Part shown: positions 4,881 to 47,964 of the stretch, in pieces | How the letters are laid out: the number at the start of each line of letters is the position of its first letter | How positions within the stretch are numbered: position 1 is the stretch's first letter | Assembly: GCA_013288305.1 (NCBI GenBank) | Contig: JABDCD010000005.1 | Coordinates: 1-48,606, forward strand | Direction: 5' to 3' | Length of the DNA: 48,606 nucleotides | Origin: Alphaproteobacteria bacterium | GTDB lineage: Bacteria; Pseudomonadota; Alphaproteobacteria; Rickettsiales; SXRF01 | Translations under genes and position numbers: made by a program | The notes under the pieces: model-generated | The model's database searches: none | Told to the model about the DNA's origin: nothing | What the model saw: only the letters and a program-made list of their open reading frames with translations

Positions 4881-4939
4881 AAAAACCTCCTGTGAAAATC
4901 GATATTACATTACTCCTTTTCTATACCGTAGCAAGAACC

Positions 4940-5228
4940 GGCATGTTTGGGCGCGGTTTGCACTTGCTTTGCCCTGGTTCGCGCCTGTTTTATCCTGTTT
5001 CGATCCGATTTTAGCCCGTTTTAAACCTGCTTTGACGCAGTATTTCAAACAGAAATTTTTTTTATTATTAATAATCAATATTTTAAAAAAATCATCTTGT
5101 GAATTTTTTCTTTTTCATCCCCAAATTTTTGACATTTTTTGACTTTTTTAACCGTTCATTAATCTTCACCCTGCATGGCATTCGTCGTTCATTATCCAGA
5201 GTAAAAGATAATCGCGTGGCCGGGAAGC
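4940..5228 (-). repeat. composite intergenic element, copy 1 (promoter-like motif, CtrA box, TTGACATTT doublet, 10/11-bp phased array)
   Basis: Same modules in the same order as 34676-34925. Confidence 0.65.
5148..5162. promoter_or_regulatory. CtrA-type box TTAA-N7-TTAA
   Basis: TTAA CCGTTCA TTAA. Confidence 0.55.
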
Positions 5229-5235
5229 CTAAAAA

Positions 5236-6042
5236 TTATGGTTGCTTATCAGCCTTCTTGATCTGCTTCACCGCCGCTTTTACCTTGAGAGCCAGCAGGG
5301 CTTTGCCATATTCGGCGGTGGCGCCGCTGGGATCGCCTTTGGCGCCATCGGTGGGGAAATCCTTTTCGGTATAATGTTTGATGAGGGCAGGGCGCACGCC
5401 CTTGGGATTAATCGCCATGACTTCGGCGGCATCCATGAACCCGGCATGGGCGGCGGCGTTTTCCACGCCCAGCTTTTGCGCCTTGACGAAATCCTCGGCG
5501 CCGTTAGCCGCATAATAATCGCTGACATGCAGCACGGTGACGCCTTCGTCTTTCCATTCCTGGCTCAGTTTTTCGGCAACCTGTTTTTGCGCCTCCTGGT
5601 TGCCGCCATGATCGCCGATGAAACAAATATGCCTGAAGCCATGCTGCTTGAAGCTGCGCGCCGCGTCTTCCAGAATCATGGCGAATCCCTCGTCGCGCAA
5701 GGAGATCGTTCCGGGAAACATCATGTGCCCGGAGGGCGGGCGGATGGAGCCTTCGGGGACATAGGCAATGACCGGCGCCGCCAGCGCGTTACCCAGTGTG
5801 CGCGCAATTTCGCCCGACGTGTAACGCACGATCCAGTTATGCTTGCCGATGGCGATGTGCGGGCCGTTTTGCTCGGTGCCGCCGCTGGGGATGATGATGG
5901 TATCGGTGCCTTTTTCCATCCGCGCCTTGACTTCCGGCCAGGTCAGGTCTTCGAGATAAAACGAATCGTGCCCGGCCCATGCCGCGCATGGAGCGTAGAA
6001 GATAAGAAATAGGGTAGCGATGATTTTCTGCACGGGAATCAA
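5236..6042 (-). CDS. creatininase/mycofactocin MftE-like amidohydrolase family protein with signal peptide
   Basis: EDLTWPEV, GGTEQNGPH, FPGTIS, DHGGN and HAG motifs. Confidence 0.88.
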   Translation of the reverse strand: MIPVQKIIATLFLIFYAPCAAWAGHDSFYLEDLTWPEVKARMEKGTDTIIIPSGGTEQNGPHIAIGKHNWIVRYTSGEIARTLGNALAAPVIAYVPEGSIRPPSGHMMFPGTISLRDEGFAMILEDAARSFKQHGFRHICFIGDHGGNQEAQKQVAEKLSQEWKDEGVTVLHVSDYYAANGAEDFVKAQKLGVENAAAHAGFMDAAEVMAINPKGVRPALIKHYTEKDFPTDGAKGDPSGATAEYGKALLALKVKAAVKQIKKADKQP

Positions 6043-10152: not shown

Positions 10153-12630
10153 ATGACCGACAGTAACGACACCATGAAAAAAGAAACCCTGAAAGTGGCC
10201 AACCCCGGTCGGCTGCAGCTCACCAAAACCGTCGAAAGCGGCAAGGTGAAGCAGAGTTTCACGCACGGGCGCTCCAAGAGCGTGACGGTGGAAGTGCGCA
10301 AAACCCGCACCTTCGCGCAGGGCGCCACCGGCGGCATGGTCGAGGTCAAGCCGCAGGGCGCGCCTACCGGTTTCAACGCGGCATCGCTGCAATCCATGCA
10401 TGATGACGAGTCGATGCGCCATCTCACCAATGACGAAAAACTGGCGCGCCTCAAGGCCCTGCACATCGCCGAGGAGGAAATGAAACGCGCCACCGAGCGC
10501 ACCTCGCAACTTCCCGAAGAAGACCGCAAGCGCAAGCCGCAAAAAGCCGAAGACGAAATCCCCACCGTCAGCGCCGATGATCTGGCGGTGGCGTCGATGC
10601 TGCCGGAAAGCGGTAAGAAATCGGCGGCGGCTGTGCCTCCTGCCAAGCTCAAGGCGCATCATCCGGACGAGGAAGGCGAGCGCAGCGACAAAGGCAAAGG
10701 CGGCAAATTAAAATTACGCGGCGGCGAAGAGCGCCGTTCTTCCGGCAAAATCACCGTGCACCAGGCGTTGTCCAATATCGAGGAACAGCGCATGCGCTCG
10801 CTGGCCTCCATCCGCCGCGCCCGCGAAAAAGCGATCAAAAAAGCGCAGGGCGGTCATCAGGAAGCCGAGAAAGTCATCCGCGACGTCGTCATTCCCGAAG
10901 CCATCACTGTCGCCGAGCTGGCCAACCGCATGGCGGCGCGCACCGTCGACGTCATCAAAGTGCTGATGAAACTGGGCATGATGGTGACGGCGACGCAATC
11001 CATCGACGCCGATACCGCCGAGCTGGTGGTCAGTGAATTCGGCCATAAATTCAAGCGCGTCACCGAGGGCGACGTCGAAAATGTCTTGAAGGAAGATGAT
11101 CAGGAAGACGCGGCGCATCTCAAGCCGCGTCCGCCGGTCGTCACCGTCATGGGGCATGTCGATCACGGCAAGACCTCGCTGCTCGACGCGCTGCGCAAGA
11201 CTAATGTGGTATCCGGAGAAGCCGGCGGCATCACGCAGCATATCGGCGCCTATCAAGTGGAACTCACCGGCGGCCAGAAGGTGACATTCCTCGATACGCC
11301 CGGCCACGAAGCCTTCACTGCCATGCGCGCCCGCGGCGCCAAGATCACTGACATTGTCGTGCTCGTCGTCGCCGCCGATGATGGCATCATGGAGCAGACG
11401 AAGGAAGCCATCGCTCACGCTAAGGCGGCGGAAGTGCCCATCGTCGTCGCCGTCAACAAAATCGATAAACCGGGCGCCGATAGCGCGCGGGTGAAAAACG
11501 AATTGATGCAATACGGCCTCGTGCCTGAGGAATTCGGCGGCGAAACGATTGTCGTCGAAGTGTCGGCCAAGACCGGGCAGAATCTCGACAAGCTGGTCGA
11601 ATCGCTGCTGGTGCAGGCCGAAATACTCGAACTCAAGGCCAATCCTGACCGTGCCGCTGCCGGCGTCGTCGTCGAAGCGCGGCTTGACCAGGGTAAGGGC
11701 GTCGTCACCACCATCCTTGTGCAAAAAGGCACGCTGCATACGGGCGATATTGTCGTCGCCGGTCCGGCCTACGGGCGCGTGCGCACGCTGGTCGACGACA
11801 AAGGCCAGACGCTGAAAGCCGCCACGCCCGGTACGCCGGTGGTCATCCTGGGCTTAAGCCACGCACCCGAAGCGGGTGACGAATTCTCGGTCGTCGAGAA
11901 CGAAAAAACCGCGCGCGACATCGCCGAATACCGCGAGCGCCGCACCCGTGAGCAGAATGTCGTGCTGGCAACGCGCACGATGGAATCGCTATTTGGCGAG
12001 GCAGCGGGCACCAATGCCAAGGAATTGCCGGTGATCATCAAAGCCGACGTGCAGGGTTCGGTCGAAGCCATCGCCCAGTCGCTCTCCAAATATTCGGGCG
12101 AGGAAGTGGCGGTGAAACTACTTCATTCCGGCGTCGGCGGCATTTCCGAATCCGACGTTACGCTGGCCAAGGCCACCGGCGCCATGATCATCGCCTTCAA
12201 TGTACGCGCCGCGCCCAAAGCCAAGGAAATGGCCGCCAAGGACAAGGTCAACATCCGCTATTATTCGATCATTTATGAAGTGGTCGATGACGTGAAAGCG
12301 GCGCTGTCGGGCATGTTGTCGCCGACGCTCAAGGAAAATTTCCTGGGCTACGCTGAAATCCGCGAAGTGTTCAACATCAGCAAGGCCGGTAAAGTCGCAG
12401 GCTGCATGGTCACCGACGGCATCATCAAGCGCGGTACGAAAGTACGCCTGCTGCGCGACAACGTCGTCATCCACGAAGGTACGCTCAAAACCCTCAAGCG
12501 CTTCAAGGACGAAGTCAAGGAAGTTAAAAGCGGCTTGGAGTGCGGCATGGCCTTCGAGAATTACGAGGACATCCGCCAGGGCGACCAGATCGAATGCTTC
12601 GAGGTGGAGCAGGTGGCGAGGACGGTTTAG
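10153..12630 (+). CDS. infB: translation initiation factor IF-2
   Basis: [31 protein letters not shown] and NKID motifs. Confidence 0.98.
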
Positions 12631-12708
12631 TCATTAGTCGCCAGTCGTTAGTCGTTAGCGAGGGGCGGCGAAAGAAAACTAACGACTAAAGACTAGCGAC
12701 TAACGGCT
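12627..12708. repeat. heptamer inverted-repeat hairpin (AGTCGTT unit)
   Basis: agtcatt agtcgcc agtcgtt agtcgtt ... aacgact aaagact agcgact aacggct. Confidence 0.85.
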
Positions 12709-13129: not shown

Positions 13130-14061
13130 TGCACCGCTGGATTATCCTCGACAAACCTTCGGGTATTACCTCCGCCCATGCGGTGGCGAAGGTGAAAAGG
13201 CTGCTTAAACCCCAAAAAATTGGCCATGCCGGGACGCTCGACCCGCTGGCATCGGGCGTGCTGCCGCTGGCGCTGGGCGAGGCGACCAAGACCGTCGCTT
13301 ATATGATGGATGCCGCCAAGGCCTATGAATTCACCGTCACCTGGGGACAGGAGCGCGATACCGACGATAGCGAGGGGAAAATCACCCACACATCCGAAAA
13401 ACGCCCGGCGAAAGCAGAAATCCTGGCTCTCTTGCCGCAATTCATAGGAAAAATCCAGCAAACGCCGCCCGCCTTTTCCGCCATCAAGGTCGGAGGCAAA
13501 CGCTCCTATGACTTGGCAAGGAGCGGGGAAGGAGTGGAACTGAAGGCGCGGGAGGTGAGGGTGGACTCGCTTCATTTGTCATCCTCGGGCTTGACCCGAG
13601 GATCCATCGTAAAGGACTATGCCGCGCCCACGGCGCTTGCGATGGATCCCCGCCTGCGCGGGGATGACAGTTTCGTATGCCACTGCGGCAAGGGCGTTTA
13701 TATACGTTCGCTGGCGCGGGATATGGGGCGGGAATTGGGCTGTTTTGGCTATGTTTCGCGTCTGAGGCGCATTAAAGTCGGAAAATTCGACCAAACCCAC
13801 GCGATTTCGCTGGAAATGCTGGAAGAAATGGTGCATAAAGGCGACCTTGGTTTTTTAATGCCCGTCGAATCTGCGCTGGACGACATCCTGGCAATCGACA
13901 TCACCGATGACCAAGCCATTCGCTTGCAGCGTGGCCAGAACGTGGTTCTTCCCTTGAATGCGGAGTGTTCGACGATGATAGCGCGCTCGGGCGGCAAGCT
14001 GATTGCCATCTGCGAGTGGAAAGAAAGCCGGTTGAAGCCGGTGCGTGTGTTTAATTTATGA
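13129..14061 (+). CDS. truB: tRNA pseudouridine(55) synthase with an in-frame palindromic insert
   Basis: KIGHAGTLDPLASGVL, PPAFSAIKVGG and CGKGVYIRSLARD motifs. Confidence 0.96.
   Translation: MHRWIILDKPSGITSAHAVAKVKRLLKPQKIGHAGTLDPLASGVLPLALGEATKTVAYMMDAAKAYEFTVTWGQERDTDDSEGKITHTSEKRPAKAEILALLPQFIGKIQQTPPAFSAIKVGGKRSYDLARSGEGVELKAREVRVDSLHLSSSGLTRGSIVKDYAAPTALAMDPRLRGDDSFVCHCGKGVYIRSLARDMGRELGCFGYVSRLRRIKVGKFDQTHAISLEMLEEMVHKGDLGFLMPVESALDDILAIDITDDQAIRLQRGQNVVLPLNAECSTMIARSGGKLIAICEWKESRLKPVRVFNL
13577..13669. repeat. REP/RPE-like palindromic element inside truB
   Basis: TGTCATCC...GGATGACA termini, two internal hairpins, 93 bp. Confidence 0.9.
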
Positions 14062-14128
14062 GTGCTCAGTTTAGAGTGCTGAGTGCTGAGAAAAAACTCG
14101 GCACTGTGTACTCGGCACTCGCAACTCA
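14059..14128. repeat. heptamer inverted-repeat hairpin (TGAGTGC unit)
   Basis: tgagtgc tcagttt agagtgc tgagtgc tgag ... actcg gcactgt gtactcg gcactcg caactca. Confidence 0.85.
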
Positions 14129-32156: not shown

Positions 32157-34675
<2,519 letters not shown>

Positions 34676-34925
34676 ACGCCTTTTATACCGATTCGTACCT
34701 GTTTCGACCCGTTTCGCACCTGTTTTAACACGTTTCGCACCACTCATGACGCGCGTGTATTTATATATTTCGGCATCTTATGCATTTTTGTGTCTCCTTA
34801 TCCCGTTTTTATTGACATTTATTGACATTTTTAACCAATTATTTACCAACGGAAGCACGCAGATTGTCCACCGCCAAAATTCTTTCATGGCTCAAGCATA
34901 ACGCGGGTTTGTGTGGTCGGGAAGT
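34676..34925 (-). repeat. composite intergenic element, copy 2
   Basis: Same modules and order as 4940-5228. Confidence 0.65.
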
Positions 34926-34964
34926 GGGAATTTTACTGGAGACGAACCCGGCGGGAATCATCAT

Positions 34965-35501
34965 CTATCTGCCATTTTTGCCATTGCCATTTACACCATT
35001 TACAGGGTGATGATGGCCATTTCTGCGCGGGTCAACCAAGCTTTCCAGTAATTGATCTGCATGATCTTTAGCTGTATTATATTTGCGATATGCGCTTTGG
35101 AAGGCTTCAACCAAAGAAATCAGTGTATTTGCACTGATAAGAACACGTTCGTCTGCGGGACTTTTTCCGATAACGATGTTACGGGATTTGACGAATTCCT
35201 CGCATTGTTGAGCAAGAAGGGCGAGTTCGGCTTCTTTGCCGCCGCCGGATACATATTGATTAGTCCTGTCATGTAGCTGTGCGTACTTTTCGCCAGCAGC
35301 GTTTCCATCGAATGTTGAAGCTATTCGTCCGGCTTCTTTGCCCAGCAGTACCAGCGCTTCAACCATCGGCAAATAGCTGGGATCGTCCTGGAGGGGAATG
35401 GCGTGAAGATTTGCAGAATGGTTTTTGCTATCGCCGTTGTTCAGATGTCTGGTAAAACGACCATTTTTCGTCGGTACATACCTTATTTCCGTGTTGCGCA
35501 T
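34965..35501 (-). CDS. hypothetical protein, low GC orphan
   Basis: 178 aa; follows 35524-35997 on the same strand. Confidence 0.65.
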   Translation of the reverse strand: MRNTEIRYVPTKNGRFTRHLNNGDSKNHSANLHAIPLQDDPSYLPMVEALVLLGKEAGRIASTFDGNAAGEKYAQLHDRTNQYVSGGGKEAELALLAQQCEEFVKSRNIVIGKSPADERVLISANTLISLVEAFQSAYRKYNTAKDHADQLLESLVDPRRNGHHHPVNGVNGNGKNGR

Positions 35502-41756: not shown

Positions 41757-43022
41757 ATGCCCATAGAAATCCTCATGCCCGCCTTGTCGCCGACCATGAC
41801 CGAGGGCAATCTCGCCAAGTGGAACATCAAGGAAGGCGACAAGGTCAAGTCCGGGCAGGTCATTGCCGAGATCGAAACCGACAAGGCGACGATGGAAGTC
41901 GAAGCCGTCGATGAGGGTATTGTCGGCAAGCTCGCCGTCCCCGCCGGAACCCAGGGCGTCAAGGTTAATCAGCTGATCGCGCTGTTGCTGGAGGAGGGGG
42001 AGGATAAGAAGGCTCTCGAGGGATATAAGCCGAAAGCAGGGGGATTAGGGATTGGGGATTCGGGATTAGGTAACAAAGAAGAAAAGAAGGAATCCGCCGC
42101 CCAATCTTCTGCTGCTAACCTCCAATCCCCAATCCCCAATCCCCAATCCCGCGTTTTTGCGAGCCCGCTGGCAAAAAGAATCGCCGCCAACGAAGGTGTC
42201 TCCTTAAGCGGCGTAAGCGGCACCGGCCCGCATGGGCGCATCGTGAAGGACGACGTGCTGAAGGCAAAAAATTCAGGCGGCGGGGCGAGGGGCGCGGTCA
42301 TGCGCAATCCGAATGAATTCAGCAAGATTCCCAACAACAATATCCGCAAGGTGATTGCGCGGCGGCTGATCGAATCGAAGCAGAACGTGCCGCATTTTTA
42401 TCTGACGATCGAGTGCGAATTGAACAAGCTGCTCGATGTGCGCAAGGACATTAATTTCGAGGCCGAAGCCGCGGCGGGCAAGGACAAAAAACCGGTCTAC
42501 AAAGTATCGGTGAACGATTTCATCATCAAGGCCTCGGCGCTGGCACTGCGCAAGGTTCCGGCGGCCAATGCGTCGTGGAGCGACGAGGCGATTCTGCAAT
42601 ACAACAACGTCGATATTTCGGTGGCGGTGGCCATCGACGGCGGGCTGATTACGCCGATCGTGAAGAACGCCGACCAGAAAACGGTGGTGCAGGTGTCGAA
42701 CGAAATGAAAGACCTGGCGGCGCGCGCGCGGGCGAACAAGCTGGCGCCGGAGGAATTCCAGGGCGGCAGTTTCAGCATCTCCAACCTCGGCATGTACGGC
42801 GTCAAGCATTTCGCCGCCATCATCAACCCGCCGCAGGGCTGCATTTTAGCCGTGGGCGCGGGCGTTGACCGCGTCGTCGTCCGCCACGGCAAAATGGAAA
42901 TCCGCAACATGATGGAAGTGACGCTCTCGGTCGATCACCGCGTTGTCGACGGCGCGGTGGGCGCGGAGTTTTTGCAGGCGTTCAGGCACTATGTCGAGAG
43001 TCCGGCGCTGTTGTTGCTGTAG
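41757..43022 (+). CDS. pdhC: pyruvate dehydrogenase E2 dihydrolipoamide acetyltransferase
   Basis: MPALSPTM, IETDKATMEV, ASPLAKR and DHRVVDGA motifs. Confidence 0.97.
   Translation: MPIEILMPALSPTMTEGNLAKWNIKEGDKVKSGQVIAEIETDKATMEVEAVDEGIVGKLAVPAGTQGVKVNQLIALLLEEGEDKKALEGYKPKAGGLGIGDSGLGNKEEKKESAAQSSAANLQSPIPNPQSRVFASPLAKRIAANEGVSLSGVSGTGPHGRIVKDDVLKAKNSGGGARGAVMRNPNEFSKIPNNNIRKVIARRLIESKQNVPHFYLTIECELNKLLDVRKDINFEAEAAAGKDKKPVYKVSVNDFIIKASALALRKVPAANASWSDEAILQYNNVDISVAVAIDGGLITPIVKNADQKTVVQVSNEMKDLAARARANKLAPEEFQGGSFSISNLGMYGVKHFAAIINPPQGCILAVGAGVDRVVVRHGKMEIRNMMEVTLSVDHRVVDGAVGAEFLQAFRHYVESPALLLL
42040..42150. repeat. heptamer inverted-repeat hairpin (GGGGATT unit) inside the pdhC linker
   Basis: ggggatt agggatt ggggatt cgggatt ... 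ccaatcc x4. Confidence 0.9.
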
Positions 43023-47895: not shown

Positions 47896-47964
47896 AAATG
47901 TCAAATGTCAAAAAACAAATGTCAATAGATACATCGCCATTTGACATTTGATAATTGACATTTG
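47896..47964. repeat. heptamer inverted-repeat hairpin (AAATGTC unit)
   Basis: aaatgtc aaatgtc aaaaaac aaatgtc aa ... catttga catttga taattga catttg. Confidence 0.85.

Follow-up and report, generated by a model that had tools for sequence, protein, structure and literature searches.

Phage-inducible chromosomal islands that redirect packaging in the SaPI manner carry a stand-alone terS gene and its cognate site, apart from the TerL of the helper, and parC of plasmid R1 carries 11-bp iterons that are bound by ParR. For SPP1 and SF6, the account in PMC4737164 describes a terminase ring with helix-turn-helix (HTH) motifs one turn of B-DNA apart and ~100 bp of wrapped DNA, and a pac region in which direct repeats flank the cut and which overlaps the terminase promoter. 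The small terminases of known gene transfer agents (GTAs) are described without a DNA-binding domain, and no binding site of a GTA is known according to PMC6854486 and PMC11841831; the latter, a review of 2024, states that GTAs seem to need no packaging site and treats the packaging peaks of Dinoroseobacter and Caulobacter as unexplained. In the account of the D. shibae peaks given by PMC5786225, no motif was found.

In this study we analyzed two loci in a window of 48,606 nucleotides (the whole stretch of DNA under analysis) from a member of an uncultured alphaproteobacterial family, together with its own assembly (G000; 1.04 Mb, 55% complete) and the genomes of relatives. All elements in the window read on the minus strand. 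The two elements are shells of a small-terminase-like (terS-like) gene that have lost the gene body; the parts kept are the promoter, the start region with its decamers, a spacer of ~100 bp where the gene body would be, and the 3' array of 6-11 units with a period of 10.5-11 bp.

Like the pac region of SPP1 and SF6 (pacL-pacC-pacR) as described in PMC4737164, the elements are ~270-300 bp long, place two kinds of direct repeat on the flanks of a central stretch, and show overlap with a terminase promoter and the terS start. They differ from this pac region in that most copies are gene-less, lie scattered over a bacterial chromosome and carry the promoter of a GTA regulon, and in that the repeats form a regular array of 6-11 units, at which binding and cutting are predicted. 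The setting is that of an RcGTA-like agent, with one conserved portal gene in 23 of the 24 genomes of the family, a GTA_holin_3TM gene and a small ORF before TerL; unlike RcGTA gp1, the HTH-bearing terminase-like gene is an extra gene located elsewhere, which shares the same promoter and is accompanied by look-alike sites. As candidate sites the elements would share with the packaging peaks of Dinoroseobacter shibae and the pseudo-pac sites of P22 the use of discrete chromosomal start points for headful packaging, as these are described in PMC5786225 and PMC10996546. The pseudo-pac sites of P22 are, however, chance look-alikes, whereas the candidate sites herein form an evolved, promoter-bearing repeat family.

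As in SaPI-type systems, the terS-like gene stands apart from TerL, and its SAR116 homologues, located after an AlpA-like gene, look island-like; unlike these systems, there is no island, integrase or capsid-remodelling gene here, and the sites are many and gene-less. The 10-11-bp direct repeats on one face of the helix with a promoter adjacent recall parC, and wrapping by a small protein is predicted here, but no ParM/ParA-type gene lies nearby, the candidate binder is terminase-like, and the copies are chromosomal and dispersed. With MITE and REP repeats the elements share their short length, the lack of a gene, the multiple intergenic copies and the rapid gain and loss; they differ in having neither terminal inverted repeats nor a hairpin, in the working-type promoter at the beginning of the element, and in the module-specific conservation among diverged copies.

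Modules of the two loci and phasing of their arrays

Copy 1 covers positions 4931-5238 (minus strand; sequence model R1: nhmmer E 1.3e-64, Infernal sequence-only E 1.7e-52). It begins with the GTA-type promoter GGCTTCCCGGCCAC (5198-5230), in which the -35-like TTCCCG (5226-5221) and the -10-like TACTCT (5203-5198) are separated by a 17-bp spacer, and an ATG at 5192 opens a peptide of 8 aa. These are followed by a CtrA-box-like TTAA-N7-TTAA (5148-5162), which is perfect only here and in the gene-bearing copy of contig C1, and by the start-region decamer doublet TTAAAAAAGTCAAAAAATGTCAAAAA (5125-5151; period 10, 2.4 copies and 92% matches by Tandem Repeats Finder, TRF). The ATG at 5135-5133 within this doublet is the relic of a terS-like start codon, with the open codons MSKIWG left. 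An A+T-rich spacer in place of the gene body (5041-5124), the sequence of which is unconserved between copies, leads to the phased array (4940-5040), composed of ~9 degenerate units of the GG-N4-AAAC-N type with a mean period of 10.5 bp (self-match z 5.2, 5.9 and 6.4 at lags 10, 11 and 21; TRF periods 10 and 11).

Copy 2 (34656-34936, minus strand; R1: nhmmer E 2e-69, Infernal E 1e-63) lies between convergent genes according to the ORF map. Its GTA-type promoter CCACTTCCCGACCAC (34895-34927) consists of TTCCCG (34923-34918), a 17-bp spacer and TATGCT (34900-34895), and the ATG at 34888 opens a peptide of 36 aa. The decamer doublet TTAAAAATGTCAATAAATGTCAATAAA (34808-34834; TRF period 10, 2.3 copies, 100% matches) contains the relic start codon at 34818-34816, with the open codons MSIKTG left, and is followed by a spacer (34746-34807) and by a phased array of 6-7 units of the GTGCGAAACGT type (34676-34745; z 7.1 at lag 21; TRF period 21, score 73) that abuts the stop codon of kdsA at 34675.

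The sequence-only reading, on which this study builds, had described both loci as one composite element; its positions for the promoter hexamers, the ATGs and the peptides hold for both copies, and so do the 10-bp-spaced doublets (5143-5129 and 34826-34812), the lack of conservation between the modules (leader and spacer identity 48-56% among the three gene-less copies of G000) and the unrelated flanking genes (copy 1 sits between creatininase and an ORF of 94 aa, copy 2 between an orphan ORF of 178 aa and kdsA). The TTAA-N7-TTAA-like box that it assigned to both is perfect in copy 1 (5162-5148), but copy 2 carries TAAA-N7-TTAA instead (34845-34831). The resemblance of the two loci is more than chance; of the 3 occurrences of the twelve-base motif CTTCCCGRCCAC in the assembly (1.04 Mb), two are at the window loci.

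The array, hitherto claimed from the sequence as a degenerate series of 10/11-bp units, is confirmed by two methods. Self-match z-scores at lags 10, 11 and 21 (1000 shuffles each) range between 3.2 and 7.1 for the two window arrays, and are 4.5, 2.0 and 2.8 for the third gene-less copy and 4.2, 3.7 and 6.3 for the 3' end of the intact gene, indicating a mean period of 10.5 bp. TRF independently reports both the arrays (4973-5023 and 34688-34741) and the doublets (5126-5149 and 34808-34830). Four exact AAAC in strict succession at 10/11 spacing were found for copy 2 only, the single case in the genome against none in any of 20 shuffles, so that the arrays are indeed degenerate. The helix-phased repeats of the window arrays span 60-100 bp, comparable to the roughly 100 bp expected for a pac site. 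Gene-less copies within one genome are 59-62% identical overall; the most conserved module is the doublet block, with a pairwise identity of 83-86%, while promoter and array are 57% identical among the three gene-less copies.

The window contains in addition hairpins with arms of tandem 7-base units (for example, GGGATTA x4 opposite CCAATCC x4) at 12627-12705, 14055-14127, 42041-42150 and 47896-47964, and a hairpin of the same class is located at G000:C1:59300-59380.

The gene-bearing copy and the family in relatives

A total of four copies are present in G000: the two window loci, a third gene-less copy (G000:C3:676-989) and a gene-bearing copy (G000:C1:58591-59127). The three-copy profile re-matches its own members at E 2e-69 to 1e-64 and finds the fourth locus at E 4.6e-15. 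In this match (C1:58591-59065) the gene body appears as one insertion of ~200 extra bases between doublet and array, and these constitute the body of an ORF of 145 codons (C1:58690-59127), the start codon of which is the ATG of the doublet and the 3' coding end of which contains the phased array. The pac sites of headful-packaging phages lie in or beside the terS gene; the gene copy here carries the decamers at its start and the array at its 3' end, and the window copies are gene-less. The existence of this full-length copy indicates that the elements descend from a protein gene, an outcome that the sequence-only reading had named as speaking against it and that does so in part, but they are not plain wrecks.

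The 145-aa protein matches phrog_7344 (E 1.3e-11) and phrog_2538 (E 1.2e-6), both of them 'terminase small subunit' families, as well as PF13022 (E 3.1e-6; 27.7 bits, 0.2 below the Pfam cut-off) and the profile of PDB 2ao9 (E 3.9e-6), a Bacillus prophage protein deposited with nine chains; a search of NCBIfam gave no match. Viral HTH clusters were the nearest in the Atlas, for which a stored homologue of the G000 protein was used as the query. The intact gene thus combines an N-terminal HTH with similarity to known small terminases, and the invariant residues of the protein lie in and beside the matched HTH stretch. The protein family is small, with 118 members at E up to 1e-5 among 5.8 billion proteins, most of them unnamed and one named 'phBC6A51 family helix-turn-helix protein'; no phage relative was detected by tblastn against 50,697 phage records.

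The intact gene of G000 is flanked by a 405-aa ORF and a lipB-like gene. It does not sit beside TerL in G008, where the distance is ~68 kb and the usual terS place before TerL is occupied by another ORF of 111-121 aa. Homologues were identified in 11 of the 41 genomes searched, G000 included, and G015 carries three intact paralogues. Homologues from SAR116 (L024 and L027-L032, on single-cell and MAG contigs) lack the promoter motif and lie directly 3' of an AlpA-like gene; this neighbour suggests, from sequence context, that the gene family could have originated in an island or satellite.

A sequence-only (Infernal) model built from the three gene-less copies was searched against the relatives, and gave 3 matches in G001, 5 in G003, 7 in G002, 8 in G007, 11 in G008 and 15 in G021 (gene copy included where present); matches outside G000 and these six relatives were few or weak. 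With four copies in a half-genome and 3-15 matches per genome in six relatives, the dispersed family postulated from the two window loci is borne out. For the census we used 38 gene-less copies from six genomes, after dropping L111-L113 (G017, G004 and G037) as A+T-rich false positives and leaving out three arrays of G001, which have no decamers. The motif regex was found in 34 of the 38 (the other four carry one- or two-base variants, as judged by eye), decamer repeats in 32, and periodicity at a z of at least 4 in 25. The four-part design holds across four genera; the promoter-to-decamer distance varies between 44 and 186 bp, and the decamer-to-array distance is stable near 100 bp. Palindromic repeats (of the GTCATTGCGAG...GCAATCC type and the GTCATCCTGAGCGCAGCGAAGGATC type) are inserted in the leaders of many elements among L055-L064 in G008 and L104-L110 in G021, with the other modules undisturbed.

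Within each genome the decamers are the first ten bases of its own terS, i.e. ATGTCAAG in G000 and G008, ATGTCACA in G003 and ATGCAAAG in G021. The core of the array is AAAC(G/A) in the five genomes with the gene, AAGCGG in G007 and GAAAAA in G001. Neither a single protein nor a profile detected a terS-like gene in G007 (97% complete) or G001 (95% complete), in both of which arrays are present. The arrays of G001, the closest relative, are made of a different 11-mer, GAAAAAATRGC, and have no decamers (L088-L090); the lipB locus holds a gene-less array in G001 and the intact gene in G000. Genomes like G012 possess the GTA and the motif and have neither the gene nor the elements, indicating that the system is dispensable, and both gene and elements are missing also from G022, of the same genus as G008. 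We found no description of such elements in the literature (the supplements of PMC5786225 and PMC11150451 lie outside this scope), and no paper on the family, in agreement with the sequence-only reading, which did not recognize a described element.

A promoter shared with the GTA regulon

The promoter motif of the elements, CCCTTCCNGNNCA followed after 17 bp by TAnnnn, precedes the terminase, portal, tail tube and holin genes of the GTA in relatives. The form CCCTTCC(C/T)G..CCA was found 60-100 bp upstream of all 10 terS-like homologues from the family of the window, and is absent before the homologue from another family. It lies upstream of the portal gene in 7 of the 11 loci examined and of the pair of g1-like ORF and TerL in 5 of 6, the sixth having a pattern match just beyond the stretch examined. 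The head cluster of G008 consists of the g1-like ORF, TerL, portal, protease, capsid and connectors, with the motif before the g1-like/TerL pair and again before the portal, at a spacing of 16-17 bp to a hexamer starting with TA. The GTA_holin_3TM gene lies directly 3' of the motif in three genomes (G008, G004 and G012), among which the motif also directly precedes the tail tube gene, a weakly matching GTA-gp10-like chaperone and a Mu-F-like head protein. Altogether the motif marks GTA genes in the relatives G003, G004, G007, G008, G012, G015, G017, G024 and G036. The number of pattern matches exceeds that of the reversed-pattern control in G003 (45 vs 22), G008 (24 vs 9) and G004 (34 vs 7), and is not above it in G012 (15 vs 13) and G015 (7 vs 12). 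The motif described beforehand as promoter-like is thus real, and as judged from the genes that it precedes in relatives, the promoter of the elements is the promoter of the GTA regulon of this lineage.

For the 55%-complete G000 itself, neither the search for portal, holin, tail tube and capsid families nor tblastn with 16 proteins of the G008 GTA loci detected a GTA structural gene. A general housekeeping promoter was rejected, because in G000 the relaxed motif, when followed by TAnnnT after 16-18 bp, is found at the terS gene and at the three elements; two further matches (on C10 and C35) are located in coding sequence and look like chance. The window copies contain no match to the canonical sigma-70 consensus, by which such a promoter was rejected, and no intrinsic terminator. 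The published GTA promoter of Caulobacter, as given in PMC11150451, differs from the motif herein described, and in Rhodobacter, according to PMC9638019, GafA binds near the -35.

Two more GTA-type motifs without the TAnnnT hexamer were noticed in G000, at C2:8433 and C4:1253 (both minus strand; the C2 copy is located at ~4180-4440 of L003). They form a subclass in which ..CCA is followed after 4-6 bases by TTCCCATGTTTT, an arrangement that also precedes the GTA holin in G004, and both lead into a common GAAGCCGAAYTTATCG leader. A CCUCC-rich hairpin lies at the end of the C2 copy, and a secreted ORF of 138 aa follows the C4 copy. Rfam gave for the C2 copy a single chance-level match (HepC_CRE, E 0.069, with 16.3 bits where the gathering score is 140), and 6S RNA downstream of the C2 motif was rejected for want of support. 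At L124, L126, L129 and L133 of G004, the GTA motif is followed by a conserved non-coding element of ~250 nt with at least 4 copies, which is possibly an RNA of the GTA regulon. The head cluster of G008 (L072, G008:C3:876000-895999) is interrupted between portal and protease by the genes for cytochrome b561 and YceI, and the tail, holin and other GTA genes of this genome are found at remote loci, every one of which carries a motif of its own.

Candidate role of the elements and rival explanations

We propose tentatively, at a probability a little below one half, that the two loci, which are gene-less derivatives of an HTH small-terminase-like gene, serve as GTA-induced, pac-like DNA sites to be wrapped by the terminase-like protein. 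When the GTA regulon fires, the promoter would open the site; the terminase-like protein would assemble into a ring, each turn of the helix facing one of its DNA-binding domains, and wrap the array over 60-110 bp, with a second contact at the decamers. The packaging of chromosomal DNA would be seeded or steered by the element in the manner of a pac site, or else the element would titrate the protein. The sequence-only reading had offered nucleoprotein sites as one of two options, and this is still the best reading of the array, the binding itself being predicted. With the elements, candidate sites for DNA recognition by a GTA may be at hand for the first time. In this candidate role they would belong to the recognition regions of terminases, in a form that lacks the gene, has multiplied and is linked to the GTA regulon, and we hold this mechanism to be slightly less likely than not. 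Against the pac-like reading stand the location of the terS-like gene away from TerL, the presence of arrays without a detected gene in G007 and G001, the occurrence of the agent without the system in G012, the lack of detected GTA structural genes in G000 (55% complete), the small size of the protein family, and the failure of tblastn to find a phage relative.

Even in the closest relative the copies have no syntenic counterparts, and this fits selfish spread as well. The elements could be selfish or decaying shells, i.e. non-autonomous remnants of terS-like paralogues that multiply and turn over without serving the host, an explanation that we consider unlikely and yet the most serious of the rivals. 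The window copies are lineage-specific insertions: the kdsA junction is empty in G001 (KdsA 93% identical), G003, G008 and G021, and the creatininase junction in G002, G003, G008 and G021. An orphan ORF of 178 aa (34965-35501, minus strand, by tblastn synteny) arrived together with copy 2, and the resulting block of ~850 bp in G000 is missing at the kdsA junction in G001 and G003. This ORF sits between kdsA and its usual convergent neighbour, has no match in Pfam, PHROG or NCBIfam, and was not found in 25 relatives. Ancient syntenic sites were accordingly rejected for kdsA and creatininase, the lipB locus of G001 being a weak hint only; no clean empty site was found for alignment; in G022 other genes occupy the site of L058 and the contig ends at that of L059.

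Selfish spread is also in line with the existence of a full-length gene copy and of the three intact paralogues in G015, with the lack of both gene and elements in G022, congeneric with G008, and with the tolerance of inserted palindromic repeats in the leaders. Such shells, if they still attract the terminase, may even ride in GTA particles for their own spread. The copies are old (59-62% identity), however, and have nevertheless kept the doublet block at 83-86% and the phase of the array; the four-part design is constant over four genera, and the decamers track the gene of each genome. Neither a transposase nor terminal inverted repeats were found; copy 1 contains only internal A+T-rich palindromes and copy 2 no inverted repeat.

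An RNA product was considered in a different form from that proposed originally, namely as a GTA-induced, unstructured transcript of ~250-350 nt with the terS leader and start region, acting as a decoy or sponge, either for a regulator of terS translation or for an RNA-binding protein; we regard this as improbable. A complete promoter is retained in every copy, the translation-start region is the most conserved block, a terminator hairpin lies directly 3' of the array in several relatives, and copy 2 and many relatives are located between convergent genes, where they serve no protein gene. No terminator is present in the window copies, however, and a period of 10.5 bp is characteristic of helical DNA rather than of RNA. 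RNAalifold gave 0 consensus pairs over 10 copies, the folding z-scores (-0.10 and +2.0) are no better than shuffles, and Rfam returned nothing for either copy at E up to 1, and only tRNAs at gathering thresholds for the window and three loci. These results speak also against a structured form of the small RNA of the sequence-only reading.

The initiator of phage lambda has its binding sites inside its own gene at ori, and the location of the array within the gene of the presumed binder, together with the layout of decamers, A+T-rich spacer and direct repeats, would allow the elements to be run-off replication origins, with iteron-like repeats, an A+T-rich stretch and an initiator, that amplify chromosome regions before packaging. 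In this they would be similar to the Bartonella agent with its module for run-off replication, which according to PMC5786225 raises packaging there. This is very improbable; the protein matches terminase families, not replication initiators, and there is no helicase loader or primase gene nearby. Usual iterons are longer, moreover, than the units of 10-11 bp found here.

Hardly any credit is left for the original reading, that of small RNA genes under CtrA and cell-cycle control. In model species CtrA is required for GTA production, and a perfect TTAA-N7-TTAA is present in copy 1 and the C1 gene copy, but among the 38 gene-less copies this box was found in only 2, and G008 has it in none of its 10, for which reason it was rejected as a module of the family and the cell-cycle part is unsupported, and neither RNA structure nor an Rfam match was obtained.

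Taking up again the pac-like reading, it is possible, although doubtful, that this lineage possesses a GTA that has regained sequence-directed packaging, with an HTH small-terminase-like protein and promoter-equipped, pac-like chromosomal sites both under the control of the GTA promoter. How GTAs choose the DNA to be packaged is an open question, for which the lineage offers a testable pair, an HTH terminase-like protein and phased look-alike sites. Recognition sites would, if true, be new for GTAs; packaging would start at defined, host-encoded places, and the elements together with newly acquired genes in their neighbourhood would be preferentially transferred. Whatever the function, the motif can be used to trace the scattered genes of the GTA regulon in an uncultured alphaproteobacterial family, and the elements provide an example of control and binding regions that outlived and out-multiplied their gene.
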